Assembly: GCA_003151625.1 (NCBI GenBank) | Contig: PLYC01000021.1 | Location: 182,930-245,662 of the forward strand | DNA: 62,733 nt | Direction: 5' to 3' | Origin: Candidatus Doudnabacteria bacterium | GTDB lineage: Bacteria; Patescibacteriota; Doudnabacteria; UBA920 | Part shown: one piece after another, positions 4,349 to 62,733 of the stretch | Layout of the letters: the number at the start of each line of letters is the position of its first letter | Numbering within the stretch: the first letter of the stretch is position 1 | Position numbers and translations under genes: made by a program | Notes under the pieces: generated by a model | Seen by the model: only the letters and a program-made list of their open reading frames with translations | Told to the model about the DNA's origin: nothing | Databases searched by the model: none

Positions 4349-4371
4349 TGATAAGTTAATTTAGTTTTTAA

Positions 4372-7581: not shown

Positions 7582-7673
7582 ATAATATTTCTACTAAACA
7601 CTAAAGAATCTAAAAGTACTAAAGAGGAAATTTTTAGTTTAGTATTTTTAGCAAATTTAGTATTTAGTAGAGA

Positions 7674-9599
7674 TTAAAGAGTTTTTTGTTTTATTTTTTC
7701 GTCAAAGCTTTCCAAGACGTCGCCGACTAAAATTTTAACCGGGGTTTTGATTTTCATTCCGAACTCCTCGCCCGCGTTTATGGATTTGGCCATAACTTTG
7801 CTTTGCTGGAGCTCGGCTATTTCCGCGCGGCCAAGATCTACCGCTTCCCGCCAAACGGTAATATGACTGTTTTTTTTAACTTCGCCTTCCTCAACCCGGC
7901 CGCCAATAATCATCTGCCCTTTTTCCGTCATAAAAATTGCCAGCACTTTGGCTTTGCCCAAAATAAACTTTTCCAGTTCAGGCGTAAACATTTTTATGAC
8001 CGCCGAGGTAATATCTTCCAAAAGTTCGTAAATTACATCGTAGCTGTCCACAATAACTTTTTTTTGTTTGGCTAAATTTATGGCTTTGGAATTTACTTTA
8101 GTTCGGAAACCAATAATAACCGCTTTGGAGCTTCCGGCCAGCAAGACATCGCTTTCATTGATTTCACCAACACCTTCGTGGAGTATGCTAATTTTAACTT
8201 CGTCGTTCTTAAGTTTGGCAATGGATTGCTTAATGGCTTCCAATGAGCCCGCGACATCGGTTTTTAAAATTAAGTTTAAAGTCTTATTTTCCAAGTCTCC
8301 TACTATGGCCTGTTTGCCGGAAAGTTTATGGCTATGGTTTTTGCGCTGGACTAAAACGGCAATGGTTTTTGCCTGGTCCAATGTTTCGGTGGTCTGTAAA
8401 ATATCCCCGGCTTGGGGAACTTCGCTAAGCCCCGATATTTGGGCGGCGGTGGAAGGAGTGGCTTCTTTAAGCTTTCGTCCGGTTTCATCTTCCAAACTGC
8501 GGATGCGCCCAAAAGCCGCACCCGCGGCAATAATATCGCCGACTTTAAGCGTGCCGTTTTGGACAATAACCGTGGCCGTGGCGCCTTTTCCTTGGCTCAC
8601 GCGGCTTTCTATAATAGTTCCGATGGTTTTGCCGTGAGGGTTGGCGCGCAGGTTCTCCACTTCCGCGGTCAATAAAATCATTTCCAGTAAGTTATCGATT
8701 CCAATGTTTTGTTTGGCGGAAATTTCGCAGGCAATAACTTTTCCTCCCCACTCTTCGGTTAAAACTCCCTGACCGGCTAATTCTTGTTTAACTTTTATAA
8801 TATTGGCCTCGGGTTTGTCCACTTTGTTTATAGCCACAATCATCGGAGTGTTGGTAAATTTGGCGCGGTTGATGACTTCCAAAGTCTGGGGCCTTACTCC
8901 ATCGTCCGCGGCAACTACAAGTACGATGATATCGGTAACATTGGCCCCGCGGGAACGCATTTCCGAAAAAGCTTCATGGCCAGGAGTGTCCAGAAAAGTT
9001 ATCCATTTGTCATTTTTCTTTACCTTATAAGCCCCAATATGCTGGGTAATGCCGCCGCTTTCGCCTTCGGCGACTTTGGTCTTCCGAATAGTATCCAAAA
9101 GGGTGGTTTTACCATGGTCTACGTGACCCATAATGGCAACAATGGGCGGACGGGATTTTAAGTTTTCTTCCTTTTCCGCTTTTAAAACTTCATGCAAAAA
9201 ACCCAGGCCGTATTCAGCTACGGTTTGGTCGGCTTCTGTTTCCACTTCGAATCCTAGTTCCTGCGCCACAATGCTGGCGGTGTCAAAATCCACTTCTTCG
9301 TTAATGGAAGCCATAACGCCGTTGTTTATTAAAACGGTAATAACTTTAGTCACAGGAAGTTTTAGTAAAAGGGCGAAATCGCGGACTTTGATAAACGAAG
9401 GCAACTTAACTTTTTTAACTTCCTGGGTTCCGGCCGCAACGGTTTTTACCGGAGTGCCAAAAGCTTCCAGCAATTTTCTGGCCACGTAATTGTCTACCTT
9501 GTTGGCTTTGGGCGAAATAAAATACCCTTTCTCCTTGGCTTTGAGACGGACGTCCTGGATTGACATATTCAGTTGGGAGGACAGGCTGGATAGATTCAT
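7674..9599 (-). CDS. infB: Translation initiation factor IF-2
   Basis: [47 protein letters not shown]. Confidence 0.97.
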
Positions 9600-9744
9600 A
9601 TTCCGCTGAGTGGTCGTTGATGAGTACGCTGATTGGTCGCTGAGCTGACAATGACATCTTAGCGTCTTATCAGCGTTGGTGTTTAGTTCAGCGTCTCTTC
9701 AGCGGTTAATAACTTATTGATTATACTCGTAAATCTTAATAAAA

Positions 9745-10497
9745 TCAAGGACTTTGTATGGGATCCGAGCTCCAAATAATATCAAAGTTTTTGCGTTCGC
9801 TTTCGGAGATATCGGGACTTTCTACAATAACTGTGATTAATTCTTTTTTTGAGCTGTAATATACAACCTTATTGGCAAAAATCAGTTTGGATGTGTTGTA
9901 TAAAAAATCTTCCGGCAAATATTTTACTTCGCGCAGAAGTTCAGCGTGGTTGGCTTTTAAAAAAGATTCGGGCATTTGAGACTTGAAGTATAAAGCTTTA
10001 AAGTTTATATGCCTTTTTAAGCGCGTGGGAATGTAATAATTTAAATCCCATTCTTCGCTTATAACATTGTGGATTTCACTTATGGAACCGATGTGCCTAA
10101 TTGTGGTATTGGATTGCTGTAATGATCCCTCCGAGGCAATAAAGTAACCTTCCTTGCCTTCGTAATAAGTAATTTTGGGTTTTTGATCCGGTTTTTGCGC
10201 CAAGCTGTTTAATTGAGGCAAAATATTTTTTAAATCCACAAGTTCTTTTTCTGTTTTTGAAACTAAAATATGCGGCGGCGTGGCCACAAATTTAAGCCCG
10301 CTTTTCATTTTAAAACTGCCCATCAGCCCTTTTCTCTCCAAAGCCTGAAAAATAACATAAGCCGAAGTCCTTTTTATTTGTGCTTCTCTTGCTAACTCCG
10401 ACATCCCCGCTTCTCCTAACTTTAAACTCGCTAAATACAAAGCTATCTCGCCATCGTCCAATCCGTTCTCTTTTAGTATTTGCTTGATGTTATCCAT
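9745..10497 (-). CDS. TrmB-family HTH transcriptional regulator
   Basis: GL...E..LYLA.LKLG...ELA...IKRTSAY N-terminal wHTH; PKITYYEGKEG effector-domain start. Confidence 0.8.
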   Translation of the reverse strand: MDNIKQILKENGLDDGEIALYLASLKLGEAGMSELAREAQIKRTSAYVIFQALERKGLMGSFKMKSGLKFVATPPHILVSKTEKELVDLKNILPQLNSLAQKPDQKPKITYYEGKEGYFIASEGSLQQSNTTIRHIGSISEIHNVISEEWDLNYYIPTRLKRHINFKALYFKSQMPESFLKANHAELLREVKYLPEDFLYNTSKLIFANKVVYYSSKKELITVIVESPDISESERKNFDIIWSSDPIQSP

Positions 10498-10509
10498 AAT
10501 TGCATATGT

Positions 10510-10562
10510 CCAATGGTGCCCATTGGTGTGAGAATATTCTTCTGACCAATGGGCACCATTGG
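10510..10562. repeat. Palindromic element family A, inverted-arm variant
   Basis: CCAATGGTGCCCATTGG-19 nt-CCAATGGGCACCATTGG. Confidence 0.7.
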
Positions 10563-10854
10563 CTCTAAATCTATAATTGACGCTTTTTACGTCAACAGTA
10601 TATCAAACCCAATAAAAATAAGCAAATAAAGGTAAAATTCACTATAAATTATGCCATAATTATTGACAGCATGTCAATTTTAATTTATAGTTGCTAGTTA
10701 CAAGCTATGTAACATGTTTTTATGAAAGAGGTGCTTTTTGCAGCGAAGGTTACAGCTCAAGGCCTTAAGTTTGAGTGATGCCGGATCGACCGGCTGGAGT
10801 TATCCGCAAAAAGAATTCCTTATTAGGAATAACCGTTTTAAGGGGGACGCATAT

Positions 10855-11223
10855 ATGCGGACGAGAATGTTAGCAGTTTTGCTGCCGCTGTTTTTACTAG
10901 GATGCGCCAAACAGCCGCTGGCTGAGCAACCGGCTGTGAGCCAAGAAACTGGAAAAGGCGATCAGTTTGTGGTTCAGCACTGGGCTTGGGTCGACATCAA
11001 GAACGATGCAATCAAGAACGGATCTTATGGCTGGGGTGAGTCATGCGTCATACAGACCGGCGGAACAATCACTGTGGTGAGCGTCGAGCATGGCCAACTT
11101 CACTTACAGTACTCCACAGTTGGGACCCACGCTGACAATAGCGTCGCTTGCCCCGACGGTGTAGTTTTCATCGTTCAGAAGGGAAAACTTAAAAGCGAGG
11201 CACTCAAGCGCAAGTCAAGGTAA
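10855..11223 (+). CDS. Hypothetical lipoprotein
   Basis: Start moved to the ATG after AAGGGGG; MRTRMLAVLLPLFLLG-C lipobox. Confidence 0.65.
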   Translation: MRTRMLAVLLPLFLLGCAKQPLAEQPAVSQETGKGDQFVVQHWAWVDIKNDAIKNGSYGWGESCVIQTGGTITVVSVEHGQLHLQYSTVGTHADNSVACPDGVVFIVQKGKLKSEALKRKSR

Positions 11224-11280
11224 AGTCATATGCGCCCGAGATGGCTGGACATCCCGGGCGCATAAATTAAATTATTTTTT

Positions 11281-13287
11281 ATGAACAAACGTTACAAATT
11301 ATATTTAGCTTCCGGCATCCGGCTTTGGAATTTATATTTTAAAGACCAATATTCGGCCAGCTTTAATAAAAAGCTGGATTTGTTCCAGCCTGCTTTAATA
11401 GATAACCAATACGCGCGCGAGCATAGGTTAATTCCCATTAAGATTGCCACTAAAGATTTAGGGGAAATTAATACATGCGACGCGGTTTTGGCTTACATGA
11501 AAAATTATGATACCCAGAATAACGGTCCGGCCGGCACGGACAGCTCTTGGGAATGCGGCTACGCCATTGGCCTCGAAAAGCCGACCATAATGTTGGTGGA
11601 AGACTTGGCGCATTTGGATTATTACACATCCCAATGGATGATTACTTTTAGCATTGGCGCCATACTAACCACGAGCAAAGAGGTGGCGGAAAAGGCAAAA
11701 AATAGCGACAAGTTTACCCATACACGGATTTTGTATTGTGAAAACAAAGACCAATTTGAAAATAAAATTATTGAATATTTGGATAGTTATTATAAGTCCA
11801 TATATGCCAGAGAAGGAATTGTAAATTTTTTTGTTGACAGTGAAATGAGAGCCTACGTGGATAGAAAAAAATTATTGAAGAGTTTAGGAACAGACGAGCC
11901 TGAATTTGGCATTTATGGAAGTTTTACAAAAAATTACGGCCGGTATTTTGATCAAGCTTTTCAAAAATCGAGAAAATTTTTGAACCGGAAAGATTATAGA
12001 ATCATTTGTCGTATGGAAACAGAAAGAGCGACAGCGGTGGCAAATATTATTTCCAATAATTACGATTTATTGCCGGGGTTCTTAGATTATTGCATTCGTC
12101 AAGCTGTTAGCAATTTTGAAGGCGGGGTTAAATTAGTTGATATTGCGGAGATGATTGAATATTGGCTGAGTATCCCGGCCAAAAAAATTAAGGGTCGCAA
12201 GCAAGGCAATAAAAAAACCCGACCAACCATATTTTATGAACTTTATGATTTAGTTAGTCACCACCTTGTGCAATCGCAAAAGTACTTTCCGGAAGATTTT
12301 GTTTATAAAATCGGGGGCATTATTGAAATTTATAACTGGTTAAATACTTACGCGATTGATGACGTTTTTGACAACTCCCAAACGCGCCAAGGCAATAAAA
12401 CTTTACATGCTCAATATAACAGCAGGAAAAACGCTTTATTATTAGGCTCCATTGGCCATTGTCTGGCTTTAAAGTTATTGTATTTAGAAACAAAACAAAA
12501 TATGGATATTGGCAAAGAGCTTGTTAAATCGTTAAACCAAGTCCAACGGCAAATGTACCAGGGACAGCTGGTAGATTTGGCTTTGACTATGGAGAACAAG
12601 GCTCAATTGAAAAGTTTTATCAAACAAAATAGTTTTATTTCCGCTTTGGGTTTATATTTTAAAAGGATTAATGGGATTTGCGGGGCGTTTTATGAAGGAA
12701 TTGGAAAAATGGCCATGCAGTCCACAAATGTCGGCACCCAATTTTACCATAAGGATGAGGTTGAAAGCTCTTGCGTTTACATTGCTAAGCTGTTTGGCTT
12801 AGTGCAAATGATTCGCAATGATTTAGGGGATTATATTTTTCCAGACATGCATTCAAAAATGAGCAAAGGGATGAAGCTGAGTTCGCATAACGATATTATG
12901 GAAGGTAAGCTGACTTTGCCGTTAATTTATATTTTATTTAATCCAAAAGTCTCTAAGTTAGATAAAAGACGACTTTCGTTTTTTATTGGAAGAAAAAATT
13001 TGTCCAAAATCGAAAAAATGGAAATTAGCAGAATCATTTGGGAAAACGGTGCCATTGAATTTTGCATGCAGTTTGTGGAAAATTTTTCCAAGCAGGTAAC
13101 CGAGCAGTATGTAAAATATATCCATGAAACTCCGACCAGGCTGAAATGGATAATTCGGCTTATGGATATTACTCCGTTAATAAATAAAACTTTTCGGCAG
13201 TTAGCGGAAGAAAAAAAATGGAAAAAATTAGAGCCAATGTCTTTGGAGGCCATAAACGCGGCAAAGCTTGCCGATTTTCAATTATAA
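11281..13287 (+). CDS. Fusion of a nucleoside 2-deoxyribosyltransferase/N-glycosidase-like domain and a trans-isoprenyl diphosphate synthase-fold domain
   Basis: N-terminal KLYLAS...DLGEINTCDAVLA...GTDSSWECGYAIGLEKP; C-terminal KKTRP, IDDVFDNSQTRQG, YQGQLVDL, QMIRNDLGDY, DIMEGKLTLPLI. Confidence 0.7.
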   Translation: MNKRYKLYLASGIRLWNLYFKDQYSASFNKKLDLFQPALIDNQYAREHRLIPIKIATKDLGEINTCDAVLAYMKNYDTQNNGPAGTDSSWECGYAIGLEKPTIMLVEDLAHLDYYTSQWMITFSIGAILTTSKEVAEKAKNSDKFTHTRILYCENKDQFENKIIEYLDSYYKSIYAREGIVNFFVDSEMRAYVDRKKLLKSLGTDEPEFGIYGSFTKNYGRYFDQAFQKSRKFLNRKDYRIICRMETERATAVANIISNNYDLLPGFLDYCIRQAVSNFEGGVKLVDIAEMIEYWLSIPAKKIKGRKQGNKKTRPTIFYELYDLVSHHLVQSQKYFPEDFVYKIGGIIEIYNWLNTYAIDDVFDNSQTRQGNKTLHAQYNSRKNALLLGSIGHCLALKLLYLETKQNMDIGKELVKSLNQVQRQMYQGQLVDLALTMENKAQLKSFIKQNSFISALGLYFKRINGICGAFYEGIGKMAMQSTNVGTQFYHKDEVESSCVYIAKLFGLVQMIRNDLGDYIFPDMHSKMSKGMKLSSHNDIMEGKLTLPLIYILFNPKVSKLDKRRLSFFIGRKNLSKIEKMEISRIIWENGAIEFCMQFVENFSKQVTEQYVKYIHETPTRLKWIIRLMDITPLINKTFRQLAEEKKWKKLEPMSLEAINAAKLADFQL

Positions 13288-13331
13288 AACCGACAACTTT
13301 TTACGATTGCCGGTTTTGTTTTGGGATAAAA

Positions 13332-13655
13332 TTATTTATTGCGGGCTAAGGTGGCAAATTGTAGAAAATATTTATTTAAACCTTCCGGGTTTTGGGGTTC
13401 ATTGGACAACTCCAAACAGGCGTTTTCCCGCAGACGGCAAAGTTCTTTTAAGCGGTGATTCTGCCAGCGCGGATCGGCGATGGTAGAATCCAAAAGTTCC
13501 AGCATGCGGTCATAGGCTTTTTGGAAATAGACAGGTTGGGCTTTTTGTTTCCAGTTTAAAGCCCGTCCGTATTCACTGCCCACATTTCCGAGCTGCTCGG
13601 CAAGGGAAAGTTTTTGCCACGAGCCATTATTCAGATTTTGATGCAAAGAGGTCAT
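13332..13655 (-). CDS. Hypothetical helical protein coupled to DUF5674
   Basis: Long ORF with a 4-nt overlap to the upstream gene; W..LSL.EQLGNVGSE..RA pattern. Confidence 0.65.
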   Translation of the reverse strand: MTSLHQNLNNGSWQKLSLAEQLGNVGSEYGRALNWKQKAQPVYFQKAYDRMLELLDSTIADPRWQNHRLKELCRLRENACLELSNEPQNPEGLNKYFLQFATLARNK

Positions 13656-13999
13656 AAAATAAGTTTGGAGACAATTTCTAAAATTTGTTTTTGAATTTCC
13701 GCGCTCTCCACCGAACGGGAGCGGTTATTTTGTCTTGGCCGGATGTTTATCATGGAATCAAATTCCAGCATGTCCGGCAGTTGCATATCGGGATAGAGGT
13801 TAATGCCCCAAAGATTTTCCTGTTTTGAGTCTTGTGCGAGCAAAAAAGCTTCTTCATCTGCATGTAAATCCCCGCCAGCAGCCAATATCTGTTTTTCCAA
13901 GTCCACAACAGCCTTAACCATATCGCCAAAGCGTTTTGAGGCAATATCTTTTAACTCTTTTTTGCTGATTGGTTTTGCTATTAAAATAATTTCTTCCAT
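13652..13999 (-). CDS. DUF5674-like protein
   Basis: MVKAVVD....AAGGDLHAD.E..LL...LWGINLYP...EFDSMINIRP.QNNRSR. Confidence 0.7.
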   Translation of the reverse strand: MEEIILIAKPISKKELKDIASKRFGDMVKAVVDLEKQILAAGGDLHADEEAFLLAQDSKQENLWGINLYPDMQLPDMLEFDSMINIRPRQNNRSRSVESAEIQKQILEIVSKLIL

Positions 14000-14014
14000 A
14001 CAGGTATTATACCA

Positions 14015-14857
14015 TTAAAATGTCCTGTTTTTGCCCACAATCATTCTTAATCTTTTTGGAATTATTTCTACGGTGCTGGGAAATTTTGCTACCACGCGGC
14101 CGAGCATGGTGAGGTTGGTACCGCGGGGCTCCAGGAATTCGATTTTTTTGCATTTTATAACTGTAGTATTGGGAACTTTTTCCAGCGTGCCTTCGGAAAT
14201 GGCATCGCGATATTTTAAAATTTGCAGTTTGCTTAGGCGTTCTAAAATAAGCAAATCCAGGTTGCCGTCCGTGGGGTCGGCGATTTTCTCGCCTTGGCCG
14301 GAAGTGGAACGAATGTTGGCCACCAGGCCGCCCAGGCCGTTAATGGTCACGTTGTAAGAATCGTCTACTCGAATAGTAAAACTTTTTGCTTCGGAAGACA
14401 GCAGTTTTAAGTTTTGCCAGAGTGAGGCGTTTTTAATGTTGTGGGACATAACGCCAAATTCCAAAAAGCTGATAAAATAATTGCCGGAAATTTTGGCAAG
14501 ATCAATTTTTTCTATTCTCCTGGCGGCTATGGTTTTTACCCCCAGGAAAATATTTTCAATACCCAAAATTTTTGCTAAGTTGGAATTTTCGTTAAAAGGG
14601 ATGAAGCCCAAAGTGAAATCCCTTCCTTTAAGCGCCGCCAGCATTAAGTTAAAGGTGTCGTCCGTACCGCAGGCGACCAAAGTTTTGGCGCCGCGCTGGC
14701 TGGCTGTGTCCACCAAATCTTGGATACTGCGCAAAGGCGTGACGCGTGCGGTTTCCCCGGAAATTTTAAACTCTGCCAAAAGCCCCTGCAGTTCTGTCTG
14801 CAGTTTTTCGAATTTTTCCATTGGCAAATTATGCTGGTCTACAATGTAGTAATACAA
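14015..14857 (-). CDS. Diacylglycerol-kinase-like protein (degenerate GGDG motif)
   Basis: LVACGTDDT in place of GGDGT, LGFIP...NLAKILGI, IDLAKI, DG.LDL. Confidence 0.65.
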   Translation of the reverse strand: MYYYIVDQHNLPMEKFEKLQTELQGLLAEFKISGETARVTPLRSIQDLVDTASQRGAKTLVACGTDDTFNLMLAALKGRDFTLGFIPFNENSNLAKILGIENIFLGVKTIAARRIEKIDLAKISGNYFISFLEFGVMSHNIKNASLWQNLKLLSSEAKSFTIRVDDSYNVTINGLGGLVANIRSTSGQGEKIADPTDGNLDLLILERLSKLQILKYRDAISEGTLEKVPNTTVIKCKKIEFLEPRGTNLTMLGRVVAKFPSTVEIIPKRLRMIVGKNRTF

Positions 14858-14954
14858 GGCGGTGTAATTAATAATTTATAATTAATAACCCATAACTGTA
14901 ACAGACAACTGAGTAGTTATCAGTTATCAATTATCAATTATGAGTTAGTTCAAG

Positions 14955-15368
14955 CTACTCTTCCGGTTCCAGTTCCGAACCACTTTTTTCCGATGCGATT
15001 TTTTTGCCGTTGCCAATCACGTTCCCGCCCATAGCGCATTTGCCGGAAAATTGCGCGCCGTCTTCCACCCTAAGAACAGTGCAGGCAATATCGCCTAAAA
15101 TTTTAGCCGTGCTTTGTAAAATTAAGTGTCCGGAAATTTTCAGGTTGCCGGAAATTTCCCCGCCAATAACGGCATTTCCCGCTAAAATATCGGCAGTTAT
15201 TTTTGCGCCGGGAATTACAAATACGCTTTGGCTGGTTTTAACTTTTCCGCTGACCTGGCCTTCTATTTTTATGTTGCCCTCACTGTTTAAATCGCCCTGA
15301 ATTTTAACGCTGGGGCCGACTACTGTTTCCGCCGGGCCATTAAGATTCTCATCTAATATTTTGTCCAT
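14955..15368 (-). CDS. Bactofilin (polymer-forming cytoskeletal protein)
   Basis: TVVGPSVKIQGDL.SEG.IKIEG.V.G...A.I.G.I.GNL...L...A...GDI...L.VEDGA.F.G.C.M. Confidence 0.9.
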   Translation of the reverse strand: MDKILDENLNGPAETVVGPSVKIQGDLNSEGNIKIEGQVSGKVKTSQSVFVIPGAKITADILAGNAVIGGEISGNLKISGHLILQSTAKILGDIACTVLRVEDGAQFSGKCAMGGNVIGNGKKIASEKSGSELEPEE

Positions 15369-15599
15369 AAATACTGCCTTTCTGATGGTTTCTCACCATG
15401 GTTAATTGATGACTTCTCGTACTTTTGTATGTATTTTTATTGAGCTGTGTAGAGCGAGTGAAAGTTATCCGCCTAAGGCGGATAACTTTCCGAGCCGAGG
15501 AGCTAATAAATTCGAAGCACGAAATACGAAATTCGAAACAAATTCTAATATCTAAATTTTAATTTATAACACCAAAAGCCCTGATTTATAATTTTTAAT

Positions 15600-53677: not shown

Positions 53678-54367
53678 ATGATTTCCAAAGTTTTTTCTGC
53701 AGCGGTAATCGGCCTTGATGCTGAACTTATAGAAGTAGAAGCGGATGTCACCAATGGCCTTCCCGCGACAATTGTTGTGGGCTTGCCCGACACCGCTGTT
53801 CAGGAAAGCCGCGAGCGGGTTAAAACCGCGATAAAAAATTCCGGATGCAGTTATCCGCAAACAAGAGTCAGTGTGAATTTGGCTCCGGCGGACGTGCCTA
53901 AACTGGGCACGCATTTTGATTTGCCTATAGCTTTGGCTATAGTTATGGCTTCCGATCAGGTGGAATTGGATATGGCTGGCAAAATGTTCTTGGGGGAGCT
54001 GTCTTTAGATGGACAGTTGCGGCCGGTGTCGGGTATTTTGGCCGCGGCATTAAAGGCAAAAAATTTGGGCATTAAGGAAATTTTTGTGCCAAAACAAAAT
54101 GCCAAGGAAGCGGCTTTGGTTGACGGAATAAAAGTTTATCCTTTAAATGATTTAAAGCAACTACTAGGGCATTTAATGGGGTTGAGTCCGCTGGTTCGGC
54201 AGAAAACAGTAGTTGCCTCAGAAATTTTAAAAAATTTTCAACCTTCTTTGGACATGAAAGACGTGGCTGGCCAGGAATTGGCCAAGCGCGCTTTGGAAAT
54301 CGCGGCGGCCGGGAGTCACAACATTCTGGCATTGTGGTCCCAATCCAGCACGCCGCATCGGGCCTGA
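53678..54367 (+). pseudogene. comM: 5' part of the ComM/YifB Mg-chelatase-family ATPase, interrupted at ~54328
   Basis: V.VEAD...GLP...VGLPD.AVQESRERV, NLAPADVPK.G..FDLPIA, GELSLDG, D..DV.GQ..AKRALEIAAAGSHNIL, then homology stops before the Walker A. Confidence 0.9.
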
Positions 54368-54756: not shown

Positions 54757-55935
54757 ATGACAATGGCAAGCAGCCCAACCTTTCCGACCATTGAGGCGTC
54801 TGCACACCGCCCTGCGCTTCTGACGTGCAACTGGTCTGGAAGCGCGCTGAAGATTGAAACTACGCTCCATCAGCTCTCGCCGTATATTGGCAAACTGAAG
54901 TCGTCTATCGCCGGTTCCCTCATCTCGCAGTTCACGCAGGTAGGCGATGTCGTATACGATCCGTTCTCGGGTTCCGGGACGGTGGCGCTAGAGGCATGGG
55001 CAGCGGGGCGCAATGTTCTCGCCAATGATCTCAGTCCGTATGCGGCATTGCTGACGCGTGCCAAGCTCTTTCCGTACCGATCCCTCGAAGACGCGCTCAA
55101 TGACATCGAACGTCTATCAGGAGAAGCCGACCAAGAACAGGGCGACATTGATCTCAGGAGCGTCCCGGCTTGGGTGCGGCAGTTCTTCCACACAGAAACG
55201 CTAAGGGAAACGCTTGCATGGACGCGCGTTCTCAAACGACGCCGGCGCTGGTTCATGCTAGCTGCCCTCTTGGGAATTCTGCATCACCAGCGCCCTGGAT
55301 TCTTGTCATTTCCAAGCAGCCACACAGTACCATACCTCCGCGTCAAAGCGTTTCCTCGCGCGAAGTTTCCTGATCTCTACGAATACCGCTCCCTACGGGA
55401 TCGCCTGGAAGCCAAAGTCAAACGGGCCTTCCGCCGGGTGCCCGAGCTGGACTTCAATCTCGACCGGCGGTGCTTCTTGAAATCGGCGCATCTACTCACA
55501 CCGGAAGCGACGGTTGACGCCATTGTCACTAGCCCACCCTACATGAGGCAGCTTGACTACGCGCGAGACAATCGCCTCAGACTCTGGTTTCTCGGGATAG
55601 ATGACCACCGTTCGCTCGACAGGAAGATCTCTCCGCGCGAAGACGCCTTTTTAAAGCTGATGCGTCAATGCTTCATCAAATGGAAGACGATTCTTAGACC
55701 GCAAAAGTACTGCGTTCTCGTGATCGGTGATGCCAGCAGGCAGGTTGAAGACGGCAACTTGCCAGAGATAATCTCCCGGATCGCGACTCATGAAGTCGGC
55801 GGCTATTCTCACGTTCACGATTACACCGAAACGATTCCAAACGAACGCCGCGTCCGTCGCGGCCTCACGGGAAGCACTTCGGAAACCATCGTCATACTGC
55901 GCAACAACGCTTCGCGCGCAAAATCGACCGCCTAG
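54757..55935 (+). CDS. Amino-methyltransferase (N4-cytosine/N6-adenine DNA MTase, motif I before motif IV)
   Basis: PYIGK, VYDPFSGSGT SAM motif, NDLSP, IVTSPPY catalytic motif. Confidence 0.85.
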   Translation: MTMASSPTFPTIEASAHRPALLTCNWSGSALKIETTLHQLSPYIGKLKSSIAGSLISQFTQVGDVVYDPFSGSGTVALEAWAAGRNVLANDLSPYAALLTRAKLFPYRSLEDALNDIERLSGEADQEQGDIDLRSVPAWVRQFFHTETLRETLAWTRVLKRRRRWFMLAALLGILHHQRPGFLSFPSSHTVPYLRVKAFPRAKFPDLYEYRSLRDRLEAKVKRAFRRVPELDFNLDRRCFLKSAHLLTPEATVDAIVTSPPYMRQLDYARDNRLRLWFLGIDDHRSLDRKISPREDAFLKLMRQCFIKWKTILRPQKYCVLVIGDASRQVEDGNLPEIISRIATHEVGGYSHVHDYTETIPNERRVRRGLTGSTSETIVILRNNASRAKSTA

Positions 55936-55957: not shown

Positions 55958-57043
55958 ATGCAGCAACTCTTCAACACGAGGAACTACAGCATCCGCGACT
56001 TTGAGGAATGGAACCAGCGAAATGAGCTCGTTCTCCAGCCGAAATTTCAGCGTCGCGACGTTTGGAGCGATAAGGCGCGCTCCTATCTGATGGACACGAT
56101 CATTCGTGGCAAGCCAATCCCCAAAATATACATGCGGCAAGATGTCAACCCCGAGACCCGTCGGACTCGGCGGGAGATTGTTGACGGGCAACAGCGGTTG
56201 CATACAGTCCTCAATTTCATCAAGGACGGCTTCAAAATCAGCAAGGCCCACCACGAGACGCTTGGCGGCAAGTCCTTTAGCGGACTGGACACGGCCACGC
56301 AGCGTGATATTTTGAAATATGAGTTCGTCGTCGATCTCTTGCAGGACATGCCAGACAACGAGGTCTACGATCTCTTTGCCCGGATTAATACCTATTCGGA
56401 GAAGCTCAAGCCCCAAGAGTTGCGCAACGCGAAGTGGTTTGGAGATTTCAAATCCTCCGTTTACCTGCTTTCCAAGGAGTTCTCGACTTTCTTCGTCGAG
56501 AACAAAATCTTCACGCCGAAGCTCATCCTTCGGATGGCAGAAGCCGAGTACATCTCTGAGCTGCTCTTGGCTATGCAAGAGGGAATCCGTCAAGGAGATA
56601 GGCGCACCCTCGATAATTGTTATAAAACATACGACGACGACTTCCCCTCGCGGAAGACTCACGAGAAGAGATTCAGAGAGACAATCGACACGATCAAGGG
56701 AATCTTCGGCGATGATTTGCCTCAATCAGAATTTTCAGCAATCCGTCTTCTCTACCCGCTATTCTGCGCGATTTACCACCTCAAATACGGTCTTCCTAGA
56801 CTGAGGTCCACGAGAAAAGTCTTTCGGGCCACCGACAATCCGAGGCTCAAATCCGCATTGGAAACTCTGGACGATCTGATCACGAGAATCAAGGAAGCCG
56901 AAGCAGATCACGAGGAAATATCGCTCTCCTCCGACGACCGCAAATTCTACGATGCATACAGTGTGCACTGGGTTCACGCTGACAAGCGGACAACATTGAC
57001 CGAGCATATCTGCAAGAAGCTCACCAAGGCCCTGGACGAGTGA
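55958..57043 (+). CDS. DUF262 (GmrS/ParB-Srx-like NTPase) protein
   Basis: LQPKFQRRDVW, G.PIP, EIVDGQQRL, LFARIN...L.PQELRNA; GGAGGG Shine-Dalgarno before the ATG at 55958. Confidence 0.88.
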   Translation: MQQLFNTRNYSIRDFEEWNQRNELVLQPKFQRRDVWSDKARSYLMDTIIRGKPIPKIYMRQDVNPETRRTRREIVDGQQRLHTVLNFIKDGFKISKAHHETLGGKSFSGLDTATQRDILKYEFVVDLLQDMPDNEVYDLFARINTYSEKLKPQELRNAKWFGDFKSSVYLLSKEFSTFFVENKIFTPKLILRMAEAEYISELLLAMQEGIRQGDRRTLDNCYKTYDDDFPSRKTHEKRFRETIDTIKGIFGDDLPQSEFSAIRLLYPLFCAIYHLKYGLPRLRSTRKVFRATDNPRLKSALETLDDLITRIKEAEADHEEISLSSDDRKFYDAYSVHWVHADKRTTLTEHICKKLTKALDE

Positions 57044-57053: not shown

Positions 57054-57689
57054 GTGGCGCGCCGGCTTATAACGGTCATAACGGAGTTTTCGCGATGCGT
57101 GCAGGACGCCAGAACTCTTGCGGCCGATGCATACGATTGGTCCCTAGCGTCGGCGGGTACACGTCCCCGGATTTCCGCGAAGCGATGCGATTCGATTACC
57201 GAATTGGCATTCTTCCGGGTTTTCAGCGGCTGGGAAGCATTCTTGGAAGAAACGTTCATTCTCTATTTGCTTGGCCAGCAGGCGCCACGCGGTCGTAAGA
57301 CCCAAAGATATGGATTCCCGCCCGGCGAAAGGGCCGCGTATGAGTGGGTCGCAGAGGGTCGCGATTATGCCAAGTGGACCGCTACCGAGGTTCGCAAGAG
57401 AGCCGAGCGTTTATTCCGTGACGGAAAGCCATTCAGCCCCGTCATCAGCAGTCACCATAATCTTTTGTTTCAGGTTAAGACAATCAGAAACGCAATCGCA
57501 CATGACTCGCTGGATGCGCGCCAGAAATTCGAGGAGCTGGTACGCAATGAGCTGCAGGCTCTTCCTCCAAATACTACCATCGGCAGCTTTCTCCTCAAGA
57601 TCAAGCCCAGATCCAATCCCCCTGTTTCATTCTTAGAGTTCTATCTCGACAAGATTGAAATCGCCGCCCGAAAGATTGTCCCTATTTGA
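57054..57689 (+). CDS. HEPN-domain putative RNase
   Basis: N-terminal W-E-x-F-L-E helix and the R-N-A-I-A-H (Rx4H) motif. Confidence 0.78.
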   Translation: MARRLITVITEFSRCVQDARTLAADAYDWSLASAGTRPRISAKRCDSITELAFFRVFSGWEAFLEETFILYLLGQQAPRGRKTQRYGFPPGERAAYEWVAEGRDYAKWTATEVRKRAERLFRDGKPFSPVISSHHNLLFQVKTIRNAIAHDSLDARQKFEELVRNELQALPPNTTIGSFLLKIKPRSNPPVSFLEFYLDKIEIAARKIVPI

Positions 57690-58015: not shown

Positions 58016-58279
58016 ATGCTTGTTGGTCCGATGGCCCGACTCTGTGAAAGAGGCTTGGCCAGGGATGGGCGATGTGTGCTGGTAGTCGGGGAGTCAGTCA
58101 GTCGGAGCCAAACCGTGCATCCAGCGCAACACCCTATCGCGATCTTTGAGGCTCACGCGCCATCTTTGGTCCTTGAGAACATGATTGTTGATTCGGTCCC
58201 CGACGTTCGAAGGGCGCACCGTGACTACCGAGGCGTGAAGACGGAGCAAATAATTGTGTTCCGAAATGCTCAAGATTGA
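58016..58279 (+). pseudogene. C-terminal remnant of a second methyltransferase paralog
   Basis: CVLVVGE...DSVPDVRRAHRDYRGVKTEQIIVFRN aligns with CVLVIGD...ETIPNERRVRRGLTGSTSETIVILRN of 54757; ATGA overlap with the kinase gene. Confidence 0.65.
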
Positions 58280-60978
58280 TGAAACGACGCCGCAATTCCA
58301 CGCAATCCGATTTCACTTGGCTCGCGAGCCTGGAGGGCCAGCAGGTCGGCGACTATGAACTCGACAACTACATCGGCAGCGGAAAGATCGGTTACGTTTA
58401 TCGAGCTCATCGTCGTGACATTCCCGACATCGAACATGCTGTCAAGTTAATACCTAATCTTAAGAAAGGATGGGAAACGGAACTAAAGAAAGTTGCGAAG
58501 TTATCGAAGGTTTCTAACGTTGTTCATTTCCATCATCTCGGCAAAGCCACTGTGTCATTTGGAGAGCACTCTGCCTCTGTTCAATACACTGTTTGGGACT
58601 ATATTCATCCCGGACGCAATCTGAATTCGATCTTGAATAAGCCGACCTTCCTTCCGGTAAGCTTCGTGGTTGCAATTGTGGAAACAGTTCTTCGAGTTCT
58701 ACATGCATGCCAGAGCCAAGGCATCCCCCGCCACGGGGACCTCCACCCAGGTAACATCCTCATAGGTGAGAAAGACGAATCTCAGCTTGATTCAAGTCTT
58801 CGGCCTGTTGAGCCGGTTTACGTATCCGATTTCGGATACGGTGCGACCTGCGGCGGACCGAAACCCAAAGACGACTATCATGGCCTCGCGTCGATCACCG
58901 ATGCGTTGACAAAAAAGATAGACTGGGCGACAGCCAATGGCAGCGACAAGCAGCTTTTGGAAGGGACGGTCTCCGTGCTCCGGAAGGTACTGTCGGAAGA
59001 TACCCAGAGCGAGCGAACGGTTCCCAAGGACATCCTTGAAGCCCTGTTGAGGGTCCGAAGTCAGGCAGGCCGGGTCAGGGAAGGCTCCCAACAGCCGCAG
59101 CCGCCGATCGGGCCGCAGGAACCCCGAAGATTCTCAGTCGGCTCCTATCAAGTCAGCGAGATGTTGGGTGATGACTGGGGGCTCTGGCAGTCGCTATTTG
59201 TCCCAACGGTTCCCGCCAGATCTCGAATTCTTGAACGTGACATTACCTCCGTAGTCACTGGACCACGGGGTTGTGGGAAGACAATGCTCTTCCGGCGGCT
59301 GAGTGAGCGGCTAATTGTCGAGTGCGGGCCAATTGACGACACCCCGACCTCCTTTGTTGGGATCTACGTCAACGCCAATGATATTTCAGATGCCTTTTCG
59401 GTCTTTTCGGACGCGCCGGATGAAAGCGCAATCGCCGATCTCTTTTGCTATACCCACCTCTGCATTTTGTCCGATTTTCTCGCGGTGGAGGCGGCACAGG
59501 CGCGGCTCGGGGGGGTACAGTCCTCGCCGGAGCTCATCCAACTCCTGACGGACTGGTTAGGCAGGCCCATGCATACCGCACCGGTCATTGCTGAGGAGAA
59601 CCAACTGGAACGGCATCGTGCCGTGCTGGAGCAAATCAAGAATTCCTTCATCACTCGGGCTGGAATCGATGGCTTCCCTGGTCGATCAGATTTCGGGCAT
59701 CATGCGTGGCTCAAGCGCTTGGTCCCGTTGATGCGGGGAGCTTGCCCATGGATGGAACAGAGAATAGTCTTCTTTTTCGTTGATGACTATACAACGCCCC
59801 GTCTTTCACTAAGCATGCAACGCGCGCTCAATCGAGTCTTATTCCAGCGTTCCCATGAGTTCGTTTTCAAGATTGCGACAGAAGCGGCCACCACTTTCTT
59901 GTCCGAGGACCTCACAGGCAAGGCGTTGCAGGACGGCGACGACTACAGGCTTGTTGATTTGGGTGAAGAAGCACTGTTCATGACTGACGCCGAGCGCGGC
60001 GCATTTCTCAGGGAGGTATTTGCGAAGCGCCTTGCTTCCGATCAACGAATCGCAATGGAGGGCCGGACCCTGGCCGGACTTCTCGGCTCGTTGGGCAAAT
60101 CGAAAACTGCGTTTGCGCGGCTGTTGCGTTCCGAAGAGCGGGAACCGCCTGAAGCAACCAAGGCCGGATCACTTCGGGGAGCAACGAAAAGAAGGGCACT
60201 CTACCACGGTCAGGATGTCTTTTGCTGTCTATGGTCTGGTGACACCCGAATCATGATTCAGCTGATGCAGGACGTTGTAGATGCCGGCACGAACGCTGAC
60301 AAGGGCGTTCTGACGAAACGGGTCGGCGAAGAAGATCAAGATCGAGCTTTCAGAAATCGAGGTAGCCAATGGCTGGACATGCAGACGCGCAACCAACCAA
60401 GCGACCCAAAGCTCGTGAAATCACTGCTTCAGATCCCCGATGCTTTGAAGGGCGTCCGCCAACTGGCTGGCGGCTCGTACGGAAGCCACCTGAAGGCCGT
60501 TGTGGAGGCTTTTAAGGATGCCGCCCGCCTGGAGCTATTGGGACCAGTCTACATAATGAAGGAAAACGGTCGGGCGCGTGAAGTTCCAAAGATGGCTTTC
60601 AGAATTGAAATAACAGATGAGTTCAGGCTCGACACCCTGGCGACGGAAATCTATCGCGACTTGATTCGATACGGGCTGTTCATGCGCGATGCACGTGGAA
60701 AGAGTGTACGCGGCGCGATGGTCCCCCGCTTATACCTCCGTCGTCTGCTTTTGCCATACTGCGTGCTCGCACTGTCAAAACGAGACAGCGTCGCGATGTC
60801 CTGCGAGTGGTTCCGTAGCCTCTTGTTGCATCCCGACAGATTCATGGAGTCCTGGCAGAAGCACCGGCAGCCCGAGCTCGCCGTCAGCCGCGACCAGACA
60901 CGCTTGGACTTCGATGGCGCTGAGCAACGCGCCCTCGACCTTGATCCGAAGTACGACGACCTGGGAGATGAGGATTGA
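58276..60978 (+). CDS. Ser/Thr-type protein kinase fused to an ORC/CDC6-like P-loop ATPase
   Basis: IGSGKIGYVY, AVK, HGDLHPGNIL, SDFG; GPRGCGKT Walker A, FFFVDDY Walker B; C-terminal helical/wHTH-like region (LIRYGLF...PRLYLRRLLLPY). Confidence 0.8.
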   Translation: MMKRRRNSTQSDFTWLASLEGQQVGDYELDNYIGSGKIGYVYRAHRRDIPDIEHAVKLIPNLKKGWETELKKVAKLSKVSNVVHFHHLGKATVSFGEHSASVQYTVWDYIHPGRNLNSILNKPTFLPVSFVVAIVETVLRVLHACQSQGIPRHGDLHPGNILIGEKDESQLDSSLRPVEPVYVSDFGYGATCGGPKPKDDYHGLASITDALTKKIDWATANGSDKQLLEGTVSVLRKVLSEDTQSERTVPKDILEALLRVRSQAGRVREGSQQPQPPIGPQEPRRFSVGSYQVSEMLGDDWGLWQSLFVPTVPARSRILERDITSVVTGPRGCGKTMLFRRLSERLIVECGPIDDTPTSFVGIYVNANDISDAFSVFSDAPDESAIADLFCYTHLCILSDFLAVEAAQARLGGVQSSPELIQLLTDWLGRPMHTAPVIAEENQLERHRAVLEQIKNSFITRAGIDGFPGRSDFGHHAWLKRLVPLMRGACPWMEQRIVFFFVDDYTTPRLSLSMQRALNRVLFQRSHEFVFKIATEAATTFLSEDLTGKALQDGDDYRLVDLGEEALFMTDAERGAFLREVFAKRLASDQRIAMEGRTLAGLLGSLGKSKTAFARLLRSEEREPPEATKAGSLRGATKRRALYHGQDVFCCLWSGDTRIMIQLMQDVVDAGTNADKGVLTKRVGEEDQDRAFRNRGSQWLDMQTRNQPSDPKLVKSLLQIPDALKGVRQLAGGSYGSHLKAVVEAFKDAARLELLGPVYIMKENGRAREVPKMAFRIEITDEFRLDTLATEIYRDLIRYGLFMRDARGKSVRGAMVPRLYLRRLLLPYCVLALSKRDSVAMSCEWFRSLLLHPDRFMESWQKHRQPELAVSRDQTRLDFDGAEQRALDLDPKYDDLGDED

Positions 60979-62099
60979 CGCTCTTGGACAACATTATGTT
61001 GAACATCCGAACGGAAGACGGAATTGACCTCCCGCGAGTCCTTGCCTGCCCCGAAAGATTGGATGTGGATCACACCGCGATTATCGCGGCCGCGGGGTTC
61101 GAAGACCGAACATTGGCGCTCGCGCCTATGCTTAGTCAGGCAGATTGTGCGCTTGGTCTAGTTGTCTACAAAGATTGGGGGAAGGAAAACCGGGTAGAAG
61201 CCCTACTTAAATCATATGCTACGACGGGCATTGGGCCATTAGCCAGGAAGTCTCTAGACTATGACCGATACGACCCCGACAGTCTCGGAAACGCCCTGAG
61301 AGATTGGTTGAAGGAGGTCGGTCACCCGCGGGTTCTTTTGGATATCTCAACGATGTCGCGGCTTGCCATTATGGTGGTTCTCGACGTCTGCCGTGAGCTG
61401 GAAAAGTGTGTCACCGTCTTCTATGCCGAGGCCGAGGAATACGGCCCTTCGGAAGCGGAGTATGTACGGGCGAAGGCTGGAGTTTACCCCCGGCCGAGTA
61501 TCCAGGTTTATAGCGGCGTCGGCGGCGTTGTCCGCTCGCGGCGTCTGTCCAGCGTTGCGCTTCAGGGAGAGCCGACGGCTTTGATAGCATTTATGTCGAT
61601 GAATGAAGGGTTGACTCAGGCGCTGATCAACTGCATCTCTCCAAGTCGTCTATTTTTGGTCAACGGACAACCTCCTCTCCACTCGTGGCGGGAGCGTGCG
61701 ACGGCTTGGATTCACGAAGAGTTGCGACTTGAATGGCCCGAGCGAGATAATCCTTGCCTAATGACAGAGGACGGAATTGCTTTACCCGAGCGAGCAACGT
61801 CCACGCTTGACTATACGGAGACTGTCAACGTGCTGCTCCATCTCTACTGGAGTAATGCTGCCGAGTACCGGGTCGTTCTGGCTCCGACTGGTAGTAAGAT
61901 GCAGACGGTGGGGTGTTACGTGGCAAAGGGAGTCCACACCGACATTCACGTTGAGTACCCGACTCCGGAGAGCTTCTTGCCCACCTACAGCAAGGGCATT
62001 GGAAAGCGCTGGATGGTTGATTTCGGCTTGCTCGATTCGCTGCTGCGCGGCTTGCGATCTAGGATCATGACGGATCGCTTGATGGTGCTTCGTGCGTGA
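60975..62099 (+). CDS. Conserved hypothetical with two CARF-like Rossmann halves
   Basis: 4-nt overlap with the kinase stop; AGFEDRT, VLLDISTMSR, VFYAEAEEY, VVLAPTGSKMQT, VEYP...YSKGIG. Confidence 0.6.
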   Translation: MTLLDNIMLNIRTEDGIDLPRVLACPERLDVDHTAIIAAAGFEDRTLALAPMLSQADCALGLVVYKDWGKENRVEALLKSYATTGIGPLARKSLDYDRYDPDSLGNALRDWLKEVGHPRVLLDISTMSRLAIMVVLDVCRELEKCVTVFYAEAEEYGPSEAEYVRAKAGVYPRPSIQVYSGVGGVVRSRRLSSVALQGEPTALIAFMSMNEGLTQALINCISPSRLFLVNGQPPLHSWRERATAWIHEELRLEWPERDNPCLMTEDGIALPERATSTLDYTETVNVLLHLYWSNAAEYRVVLAPTGSKMQTVGCYVAKGVHTDIHVEYPTPESFLPTYSKGIGKRWMVDFGLLDSLLRGLRSRIMTDRLMVLRA

Positions 62100-62295
62100 A
62101 GTGTGACAGCCGAGCGACTTGGGCCAGTGGGGTGTGGCGCTATATTGGAGAAGTCGCCCTAAAGGTCGAGGGGCGTTCAGGAACATCAGCCCTCTGAAGT
62201 CGCGGTCACGTTAATTGTGAGTATTTGATGAACACCAGTAATTCGCTCGTCGCTATCCAGGACGCGTAAAAGAAATAAGTCAAGCGATTGGCGAT

Positions 62296-62422
62296 TGCCC
62301 ATCGATGCGGCAGGAGCTCGTCAGGCCTGGCAATTAGTATAGTCGGCGATCCGTCCCAGCGCGGCGCGGAACCAGGCGAAGGGATCGATCTTGACGAGTT
62401 CGCGGGAGGTGACCAAGCTGCG
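62296..62422 (-). mobile_element. IS66-family transposase C-terminal remnant (frameshifted)
   Basis: RSLVTSRELVKIDPFAWFRAALGRIADY, shift, RPDELLPHRWA, matching the IS66 C-terminal DPxxWL.D.L.RI...I.ELLP..W pattern. Confidence 0.7.
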
Positions 62423-62698
62423 GAGCTGTGCGTAGACAGAAGCGCATTACAGCATGAAATCAACGGTTTACCGGAGCCTATAAGAGTTCACCAGCTAAGA
62501 CGGCGATGAGTCGCCCGTGGAGCGAGTCGCAGCGGTCACGATGGAGGAGGCCATTGCCTGCGAAGGCGGTACGCCGATTTTGAAATCGTCCGGGTTGAGT
62601 ATATGGGGGTTGGTCCGTTTGCTTTCTGCATCCTCGGCCGACTGAGCGGCGCCGTTCGGTTGCCCGGCTCGGTAGGCTTTGGATCAGCGCAGGCGGAC

Positions 62699-62733
62699 CT
62701 CTGACATTCCGCCACTGTGGCGGAATGTCAGAG
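62699..62733. repeat. Perfect 17-bp-arm hairpin ending at the last base of the window
   Basis: CTCTGACATTCCGCCAC-T-GTGGCGGAATGTCAGAG. Confidence 0.8.

Follow-up and report, generated by a model that had tools for sequence, protein, structure and literature searches.

A kinase-ATPase and its tandem-CARF partner as the probable core of a mobile, methylase-led cassette in a Doudnabacteria genome

Of the receptors for second messengers in prokaryotic immunity, CARF domains are the best known. Among the described proteins, those closest to the pair examined here form a small family in which a Zn ribbon, a Ser-Thr-Tyr kinase, an AAA+ ATPase with an arginine in its P-loop, a CARF domain and a winged helix-turn-helix (wHTH) are fused, and for which kinase-mediated signalling has been suggested (Makarova et al. 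2014, PMC4012209). We analysed two adjacent genes, coding for a kinase-ATPase (KinATP) and a tandem-CARF protein (CARFp), in a stretch of 62,733 nucleotides (the window) that constitutes the end of a contig, C5, of a Candidatus Doudnabacteria bacterium whose genome (1.5 Mb, 34 contigs) has a GC content of about 41%. Judged from their sequences, the two proteins are a split version of the fused family, lacking its Zn ribbon. The kinase-AAA+-CARF combination was thus catalogued bioinformatically in 2014, and the idea of the kinase as output is already published for the fused family. The reading that we favour, with reasonable though not strong confidence, is that KinATP and CARFp supply the sensor and the output at the heart of a cassette that is mobile, linked to methylation and free of nucleases, and whose most likely role is anti-phage. 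The first gene and its parts are the following (aa, amino acids; pLDDT, predicted local distance difference test):

58279-60978, + strand: KinATP, 899 aa, defined from the list of open reading frames (ORFs), the junction sequence, Pfam and PADLOC
58321-59073, + strand: Hanks-type protein-kinase domain, aa 15-265, catalytic residues intact
58375-58398, + strand: Gly loop GSGKIGYV, aa 33-40
58438-58449, + strand: AVKL, containing lysine K56
58732-58755, + strand: HGDLHPGN, aa 152-159
58828-58836, + strand: DFG, aa 184-186
59074-59208, + strand: linker predicted to be disordered, aa 266-310, pLDDT <50
59209-60048, + strand: AAA+ ATPase module of the ORC/Cdc6-like type, aa 311-590, its P-loop containing an arginine
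59260-59283, + strand: Walker A motif GPRGCGKT, aa 328-335
59770-59787, + strand: Walker B motif FFFVDD, aa 498-503
60049-60975, + strand: conserved C-terminal alpha/beta region, aa 591-899, rich in invariant residues, with the basic stretch RDARGKSVRGAMVPRLYLRRLLLPY

The ORF of KinATP is real, as the original prediction held; its start had been placed at TTG 58276, one codon too early, and ATG 58279 is more likely, forming a TGATG overlap with the stop of a methylase stump that lies upstream. Pfam Pkinase matched residues 27-196 above its cut-off (expect value, E, 9.4e-10), and the ORC-CDC6-like profile PF24389 matched residues 307-588 with E 3.6e-26 and 92.5 bits against a cut-off of 27, while the C-terminal third of the protein corresponded to positions 390-569 of the same profile (E 4.8e-6). 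KinATP was also recognized by the PADLOC profile CARF6--CARF_STK_AAA (PDLC01925, E 4.8e-22). PADLOC holds profiles for both fused and stand-alone forms under CARF6; a fused profile of 1187 positions matched KinATP at 37-602 and CARFp at 887-1001, which is the expected order. The assignment to CARF6 follows the names of these PADLOC profiles, and a literature search on CARF6 returned nothing relevant. KinATP has more than 300 homologues, each of ~900 aa, which occurred on the same contigs as homologues of CARFp.

Conservation was examined in 40 homologues of 50-86% identity. K56, H152, G153, N159, D184-F185-G186, T327-T335 and D502-D503 are invariant, as is R330, the arginine in the P-loop; the Gly loop G33-V40, the alphaC glutamate E68, H152-N159 and D184-F-G are invariant or nearly so. 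With its Gly loop, lysine, alphaC Glu, catalytic-loop Asp and Asn, DFG and fold match, the kinase has the hallmarks of the Hanks type. The four kinase motifs that the original prediction had picked out (Gly loop, lysine, HGDLHPGN and DFG) are therefore present and constant in the family, and its ATPase signature of GPRGCGKT followed by an hhhhDD motif, here FFFVDD, is borne out together with the PF24389 match. The activation segment is short and has no APE motif to end it, as the original prediction had noted, nor a P+1 substrate loop: 12 residues separate DFG from the invariant D199, which we read as the alphaF Asp opening the next helix.

The AlphaFold model of KinATP has a pLDDT of 73, with moderate to low confidence in the C-terminal region. 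When it was submitted to Foldseek, PknI, PknB, ULK2, GAK and PKR were aligned over 255-290 columns, with a probability of 1.0 and TM-scores of 0.55-0.70 normalized on the target. An alignment of this length indicates, in the model, a bilobal kinase with a full C-lobe in which the activation segment alone is short; the description of the kinase as "minimal" is thus not quite accurate. The search with the whole model returned kinases only, which swamped the ATPase part, and a sequence search of the PDB with residues 301-899 gave no matches. The 30 N-terminal residues contain no cysteine, and therefore none that could belong to a Zn ribbon. No nuclease domain was found in KinATP or in CARFp with Pfam, PADLOC or NCBIfam profiles.

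The second gene and its parts are:

60975-62099, + strand: CARFp, 374 aa, starting at TTG 60975, which overlaps the KinATP stop, or at ATG 60996
61050-61550, + strand: CARF lobe 1, aa 26-192, delimited from the secondary structure of the model
61095-61109, + strand: GFEDR loop of lobe 1, after the first long strand (34-40)
61332-61361, + strand: VLLDISTMSR loop of lobe 1, aa 120-129, after strand 4 (119-123)
61560-62030, + strand: CARF lobe 2, aa 196-352, delimited from the secondary structure of the model
61590-61619, + strand: FMSMNEGLTQ loop of lobe 2, with FMSxN after strand 201-206
61686-61715, + strand: WRERATAWIH helix of lobe 2
61872-61898, + strand: VVLAPTGSK loop of lobe 2, aa 300-308, with P-T-G-S-K308 after strand 299-303 (strand 4)

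Pfam gave no match above threshold for CARFp. The PADLOC profile CARF6--CARF_CARF_CARF (PDLC01917) aligned positions 14-292 of its 308 with residues 32-340 (E 3.9e-12), and four more CARF6 profiles matched with E <1e-3. A sequence search of the PDB brought nothing useful. The AlphaFold model (pLDDT 88.9, predicted template modelling score, pTM, 0.90) consists of two Rossmann-like lobes and, behind them, one C-terminal helix. The top match of this model in the PDB, found with Foldseek, is the 761-aa Csm6 of A. procaprae, over 603 aligned columns; the CARF domains of Cam1, Csa3 and TtCsm6 were aligned over 141-183 columns with a probability of 1.0, and Can2 and Cad1 are among the best matches. 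The model thus shows CARFp as two CARF lobes in one chain, a predicted pseudo-dimer without an effector domain. This agrees with the original prediction of a two-lobed CARF protein lacking an effector, and the search for a CARF/Rossmann duplication, which had been named as its check, came out in its favour at the level of the predicted fold. We hold the domain and family assignments of KinATP and CARFp to be practically certain.

The CARF consensus after strand 4 is [DN]x[ST]xxx[RK], and a conserved loop follows strand 1. In lobe 1 of CARFp, D123-I-S-T-M-S-R129 fits this consensus. Across 66 family representatives of 20-48% identity, G41, E43, R45, D123, W238, K308 and Y328 are invariant, and S125, M127, S128, P304, G306 and S307 nearly so, which places the VLLDISTMSR and VVLAPTGSK loops among the most conserved features of the family. 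The claim that these two loops are similar motifs held in part: they do follow strand 4 of each lobe and are highly conserved, whereas a comparison of the two lobe profiles with hhalign was not significant (E 0.28), its sole pairing being that of LDISTMSR with LAPTGSKM. The proposed duplication consequently derives from the predicted fold and the positions of the loops.

The family of CARFp is large, with 1085 homologous clusters at 90% identity and, in a profile search, 995 representatives at 50% clustering; no homologue was present in PHROGs or in a phage collection. Several relatives carry the tandem-CARF module fused to other domains: an AEP-like primase domain in locus L119 (5911-9633, with radical-SAM and Metallophos genes after it), and HisKA/HATPase_c, TIR_2 and Metallophos domains in P0255, P0266 and P0306, these fusions being single cluster representatives or ORFs in which gene-calling errors are possible. 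Linkage to histidine-kinase, TIR, metallophosphoesterase and primase-like domains fits the role of a sensor. CARFp might instead be a ring-nuclease-like enzyme acting on a nucleotide or an RNA end, with the ATPase-kinase as its regulator or partner. Several CARF domains, such as those of Crn1 and Csm6, cleave their own ligand, and the cleft loops of CARFp hold unusually many invariant polar residues (E43, R45, D123, S125, S128, R239 and K308), as an enzyme would. However, CARFp matched none of the catalytic motifs of known ring nucleases, and the fusion of relatives to output domains (TIR, histidine kinase) is the pattern of a sensor, so that we consider an enzymatic CARFp improbable.

A sensor calls for a ligand, and the closest structures, Cam1, Csa3, Csm6 and Can2, are CARF domains that bind cyclic tetra- or hexa-adenylate (cA4 or cA6). 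Together with the CARF fold and the presence of both signature loops, this would suit a pair working as an accessory effector that senses in trans cyclic oligoadenylates (cOA) or other cyclic oligonucleotides made by a type III CRISPR system or CBASS elsewhere in the genome. We searched for such a source in this genome and in 8 other carriers: neither the Cas10 palm (PF22335) nor the SMODS cyclase (PF18144) profile reached its cut-off in any of them, and no cyclase is encoded in the KinATP-CARFp operon. Moreover, the genes conserved beside the pair encode a methylase and ThyX, and cas or CD-NTase genes are not among them. These results sustain the earlier statement that the module has no second-messenger synthase, and they leave an in-trans effector of this kind with very little probability.

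We compared about 100 loci, 21 from species genomes (mostly Acidobacteriota, with Gemmatimonadales, Burkholderiales, Bradyrhizobium, Latescibacterota and Desulfobacterales) and 80 from metagenomes. KinATP lies directly 5' of CARFp in all 20 informative genome loci; in the metagenome loci the ATPase ORF adjoins CARFp (59/59) and the kinase domain is present (38/38). The predicted coupling of the two proteins is therefore well founded, given that their genes overlap in the window, are always adjacent elsewhere and are fused in the catalogued family. Directly upstream of KinATP, 31 of 33 metagenome loci have a homologue of the window methyltransferase. Among the genome loci a methylase stands beside the pair in 18 of 20, directly upstream in 15 and downstream, divergent or separated by inserted genes in the rest. 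The nearest relatives of the pair, L031 (86%), L043 (84%), L046 (81%) and L028 (76%), are clean operons of methyltransferase, KinATP and CARFp, and two of them, L031 and L028, have a 1-nt overlap (TGATG) between the methylase stop and the start of KinATP. In its canonical form the pair thus belongs to an operon that a DNA methyltransferase heads and that often closes with ThyX, and the pair is not autonomous. Its delineation as a self-contained second sub-module of the window does not hold, and what the window retains of the cognate methylase is a stump. We consider it very probable that the methylase belongs functionally with KinATP and CARFp.

ThyX follows CARFp in 9 genome loci and is convergent with it in a tenth; it is present 3' of CARFp in 17 of 47 metagenome loci. 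In L009, L012, L014, L015, L017, L018, L020, L021 and L023 the gene lies at about 9000-10100 on the + strand, in L026 at 8699-9625 on the - strand and in L042 at 10097-11020. These proteins form a distinct ThyX subfamily (307-352 aa, 58-73% mutual identity) with an intact RHR-x7-S motif, whose genes come right behind CARFp in roughly half of the more distant cassettes, and two other loci have ThyA-family neighbours. No ThyX was found in the clade of the window or in this genome. In L012 a Mom-family gene (4032-4937; PF25680, E 4.5e-10) replaces the methylase directly upstream of KinATP, and the methylase itself lies further downstream, beyond ThyX; DNA-modification enzymes of other kinds thus seem able to head the cassette. 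In L026 an overlapping five-gene operon (1695-8696) encodes a methyltransferase, a ParA-like AAA_31 protein, SIR2_2, KinATP and CARFp, so that the place taken by a DUF262-HEPN pair in the window, between methylase and KinATP, is filled here by an NADase-type effector pair.

Such partners raise the question of whether the cassette has to do with immunity at all. It could be a module of mobile elements for DNA or nucleotide modification and for maintenance, acting in epigenetic control or addiction; its kinase/P-loop and thymidylate-synthase genes would then work in a pathway of pyrimidine modification. Its leading gene is a methylase (a Mom-family gene in L012), a ThyX with intact RHR-x7-S or a ThyA follows in a third to half of the loci, and it is carried on integrative elements and plasmids, all of which would be expected of such a module. 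Yet ThyX is absent from the clade of the window and from this genome, the fold of the kinase is that of a protein kinase and not of a nucleotide kinase, and the sporadic distribution, the defence-gene neighbours and the DUF262-HEPN companion are typical of immunity. A non-immune module appears to us quite improbable, whereas we judge it probable, with good confidence, that the cassette is an immune system.

The neighbours of the cassette elsewhere include type I restriction-modification, McrBC, DISARM, Hma, nSTAND, BrxL/PglZ, SIR2 and ArdC genes, relaxases and recombinases. CARFp was carried by 3 of 401 sampled Acidobacteriota, and KinATP by none of 40 relatives of the window genome (1/41 when the latter is counted). 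A cultured carrier is Bradyrhizobium quebecense 66S1MB, where the cassette is on plasmid pBq66S1MBc with its genes other than the methylase and thyX annotated as hypothetical. In this copy (L042, NZ_CP088025.1 70761-73456) the kinase-ATPase is annotated as two ORFs, a 246-aa kinase and a 652-aa ATPase, which may reflect a frameshift or a natural split.

Immediately upstream of KinATP the window contains the remains of the methylase of the pair and, before it, a cassette with a methylase of its own:

54757-55935, + strand: full-length amino-methyltransferase with DPFSGSG and SPPY motifs; Pfam N6_N4_Mtase, PADLOC MTase_II (E 3.3e-25)
55958-57043, + strand: DUF262 / GmrSD_N (NsnA-like) protein; Pfam GmrSD_N (E 1.2e-22), PADLOC NsnA (E 1.7e-38)
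57054-57689, + strand: HEPN-like protein of 211 aa with an RNAIAH motif and a weak PADLOC CARF_HEPN match
58031-58276, + strand: stump of the pair's own methyltransferase, its last 82 codons, with the TGA stop at 58277-58279

The stump lies in an 87-codon ORF (58016-58279) directly upstream of KinATP. It shares 76% identity with the C-terminal end of the methylase found before KinATP in L031, where KinATP is 86% identical, against only 31% with the full-length methylase of the window; its ratio of nonsynonymous to synonymous substitution rates (dN/dS) is 0.17. The full-length methylase, which heads the DUF262-HEPN cassette and is 45% identical overall to the cognate type, is the sole intact methylase left for the pair in the window. 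Its closest relatives (79-84% identity) head cassettes made of a methyltransferase, a DUF262/GmrSD_N protein and a weakly HEPN-like protein of ~213 aa, which indicates that this first sub-module is a real unit with its own methylase. The DUF262 protein of the window lacks the usual C-terminal nuclease, its best PADLOC match being NsnA of Menshen, and the HEPN-like homologue in L034 matches HEPN_RiboL-PSP (E 3.6e-4). In L034 such a cassette of methyltransferase, DUF262 and HEPN-like (~212 aa) genes (8001-10893) comes directly after a phage terminase (GpA) gene.

The juxtaposition of the two units is not confined to the window. L044 has the same gene order, with identities of 74% for the methyltransferase, 75% for DUF262, 57% for the HEPN-like protein, 78% for KinATP and 74% for CARFp, and it keeps a different piece of a second methylase, an N-terminal fragment containing DPFSGSG. 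This composite locus (7767-13120) is followed by an ArdC-like anti-restriction gene, BrxL and PglZ, and is thus located beside a BREX system. In L052-L055 a 48%-identical KinATP-CARFp pair is convergent with a cassette of HEPN-like (68%), DUF262 (79%) and methyltransferase genes, and no other methylase was detected on these contigs. Overall, DUF262 homologues of 70-79% identity stand beside KinATP-CARFp in L044 and L052-L055, together with HEPN-like homologues, and in L016 70 residues of a DUF262 protein survive between the methylase and KinATP. A KinATP tree of six sequences was too poorly resolved to count the origins of the composite arrangement. Since the composite locus recurs in other lineages, one methylase of the family probably serves both effector pairs while the redundant second copy decays, as far as the sequences can tell.

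The pair was acquired with an island. The host gene comM is represented in the window by its 5' half (53678-54328, + strand), interrupted just before its Walker A motif, and from about 54328 to the end of contig C5 the GC content is about 55%. The 3' half of comM was found on contig C18, followed by DNA of 55-61% GC up to the end of that contig. Of 18 genomes in the genus, 17 have an uninterrupted comM at this point. The GC shift, the interrupted comM and the absence of the locus from relatives indicate that the locus arrived as cargo on an integrative island that targets comM and came from a donor of higher GC; the genes of the locus have their closest relatives in Acidobacteriota. An assembly chimera was considered as the cause of the GC switch and rejected, because both comM halves, on two contigs, are flanked by high-GC DNA and because L044 independently shows the same gene order.

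At the same comM codon, another genome of the genus, G020 (L041, G020:C1:179700-184000), has a different insert of 3.1 kb, which encodes an OLD-family AAA_15/TOPRIM protein and a beta-flower protein. The two insertions resemble each other in their junction peptides, HNIL|ALWSQS against HNILL|RWSQS and CDHDA|LLSGPPG against CDHQM|LLSGPPG; the comM regions concerned in the genome studied here are 53678-54367 of the window and 8701-9560 of L006, which is contig C18. comM is thus an integration hot spot in this genus, and the island described here covers at least 14.7 kb over two contigs. No intact recombinase was seen in this island or in the G020 insert. At its far end (L006) the island encodes a 500-aa TIR_2 protein (10110-11612, + strand) with a weak squalene-hopene-cyclase-like repeat region, a HAD hydrolase (13058-13687, + strand) and a 586-aa protein of the phosphoglycerate-kinase family with a long C-terminal extension (13716-15476, - strand); such a paralogue is unusual on a defence island. 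No recognisable gene was found in the 630 bp after CARFp, and an IS66-type transposase remnant suspected at 62206-62732 (- strand) was dropped as Pfam gave no match. The contig stops exactly where a perfect inverted repeat of 17 bp, its loop being 1 nt, is completed (62699-62733; CTCTGACATTCCGCCAC t GTGGCGGAATGTCAGAG); this is either the edge of a repeat element at which the assembly broke or an artefact of fold-back during assembly.

An acquired locus with a truncated methylase may be decaying, and the copy in the window could be a dead relic, its pair having ceased to be expressed or to function in this bacterium. The reduction of the cognate methylase to 82 codons, the lack of a convincing promoter upstream (a promoter and terminator scan of the locus found no more sites than in shuffled sequence) and the foreign nature of the island in a small genome of 41% GC are all compatible with this explanation. 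Nevertheless both ORFs are full length, with at most one conserved position deviating: KinATP departs from none of 222 conserved columns and CARFp from 1 of 89, and their dN/dS values against the nearest relative, L031, are 0.11 and 0.10, which speaks for purifying selection. Along with the intact catalytic and loop residues, these values make both genes of the window look functional. The stump also retains its TGATG coupling to KinATP, and the composite order, or the pair with the methylase of a DUF262 cassette only, recurs in L044 and L052-L055. Full-length ORFs, few deviations and a recurring composite order argue for a selected arrangement, and there is in our view only a small chance that the copy is dead.

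On this basis, the cassette might work in four steps, a scheme that as a whole we put forward as possible but rather doubtful. The methylase would mark host DNA as self; the ATPase, with its conserved basic C-terminal region, would bind DNA or oligomerise; CARFp would bind, in the cleft lined by the GFEDR, DISTMS(K/R), FMSxN and PTGSK loops, a nucleotide-type ligand that is not made by the operon, and the ligand would gate the ATPase-kinase; finally the kinase would phosphorylate itself, host proteins or phage proteins, so that the infection is arrested.

Several points weigh against a sensor and output core with this role. A literature search found no paper naming or testing a cassette of methylase, kinase/ATPase and CARF, with or without ThyX. 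The pair has no recognisable nuclease and its kinase lacks the usual peptide-binding activation segment; the substrate could be a small molecule or the kinase itself. The fold search gave no identity for the C-terminal region of KinATP, which makes DNA binding a guess. The presence of defence genes around the cassette is a qualitative observation, the model does not explain the frequent ThyX or ThyA partner, and the invariant polar residues E43, R45, D123, R239 and K308 of CARFp would also suit an enzyme. In the window itself, loss of the cognate methylase and the lack of a convincing promoter mean that the copy may be silent, and the host is an uncultured bacterium with a small genome.

A more specific version, which we regard as unlikely, is that the cassette is a new kind of epigenetic immune system in which a single small methylase sets a self mark, and effector pairs that can replace one another, in the window DUF262-HEPN and kinase-ATPase/tandem-CARF, make common use of it. 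The tandem CARF would then read a nucleotide derived from infection and not a cyclic messenger of the host, and the response would consist in phosphorylation instead of cleavage of nucleic acids. The ligand could for example be a change in the pyrimidine deoxynucleotide pool, a phage-modified deoxynucleoside monophosphate or a cyclic-phosphate RNA end. A CARF reading an infection-derived nucleotide would explain why half of the more distant cassettes bring their own ThyX or ThyA.

Interest in the locus is tempered by the fact that its domain combination was catalogued in 2014 and is in PADLOC. Still, a large CARF family of about 1000 clusters at 50% identity is found here without a linked cyclase and tied to a kinase-ATPase and a DNA methylase, and the identity of the CARFp ligand would show what CARF sensors read outside CRISPR. 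The composite loci amount to a natural experiment, in that the pair has lost its own methylase where a DUF262-HEPN cassette with a related methylase adjoins it, and they suggest that a single methyl mark can serve several effector modules. If borne out, the cassette would be a nuclease-free system joining methylation to phosphorylation, to be placed beside BREX/Pgl and MADS.

How far the likeness to known systems extends can be stated for each of them. With the fused family of Makarova et al. 2014 the window pair has in common the kinase, the AAA+ ATPase with an arginine in its P-loop (GPRGCGKT) and the CARF6-type sensor. In that family the CARF is part of the same polypeptide, whereas in the window it is encoded by a separate, translationally coupled gene that overlaps the KinATP stop; the family has a Zn ribbon and a wHTH, of which the pair lacks the former and shows no identified example of the latter; and methylase and ThyX partners are not mentioned in the 2014 text (PMC4012209). 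BREX type 2/Pgl (PglX methylase, PglW kinase, PglY/BrxC ORC-like ATPase and PglZ) likewise brings together a methylase, a Hanks-type kinase and an ATPase of the ORC/Cdc6 clade in a nuclease-poor locus. The cassette differs from it by the absence of PglZ (no such gene at the window locus in the ORF list or by Pfam), BrxA/B, BrxD and a helicase, by a methylase of a different, small amino-methyltransferase family, by the presence of kinase and ATPase in one polypeptide and by a tandem CARF sensor, which BREX lacks. None of the PADLOC BREX core profiles was matched by the pair, and the methylase gave a weak PglX match (E 4.7e-7).

MADS (kinase MAD6), PD-T4-6 and Stk2 also employ a Hanks-type kinase in phage defence, linked to methylation in the case of MADS. 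The kinase of KinATP matched PD-T4-6 (E 3.7e-13) and mad6 (E 1.9e-11) weakly, with 37.9 bits for NCBIfam MAD6 against a cut-off of 460; the mad8 match was restricted to the P-loop (E 0.017) and the remaining mad genes are absent from the window locus. Unlike the cassette, PD-T4-6 and Stk2 are single-gene systems, and no ATPase, CARF or methylase accompanies their kinase. Compared with classical restriction-modification, the pair has no nuclease domain, the sole nuclease-like motif nearby being that of the neighbouring HEPN-like gene. Finally, CARFp shares with the CARF proteins of type III CRISPR systems (tandem-CARF Csm6, Can1/Can2, Cam1 and Csa3) the Rossmann-like fold and the signature loop after strand 4 in both lobes, with no cas genes, no Cas10 above cut-off and no fused nuclease, helix-turn-helix or membrane effector at its side. 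As in those proteins, its two lobes, modelled in one chain, could enclose one ligand, and the output of CARFp is instead a separate kinase-ATPase.

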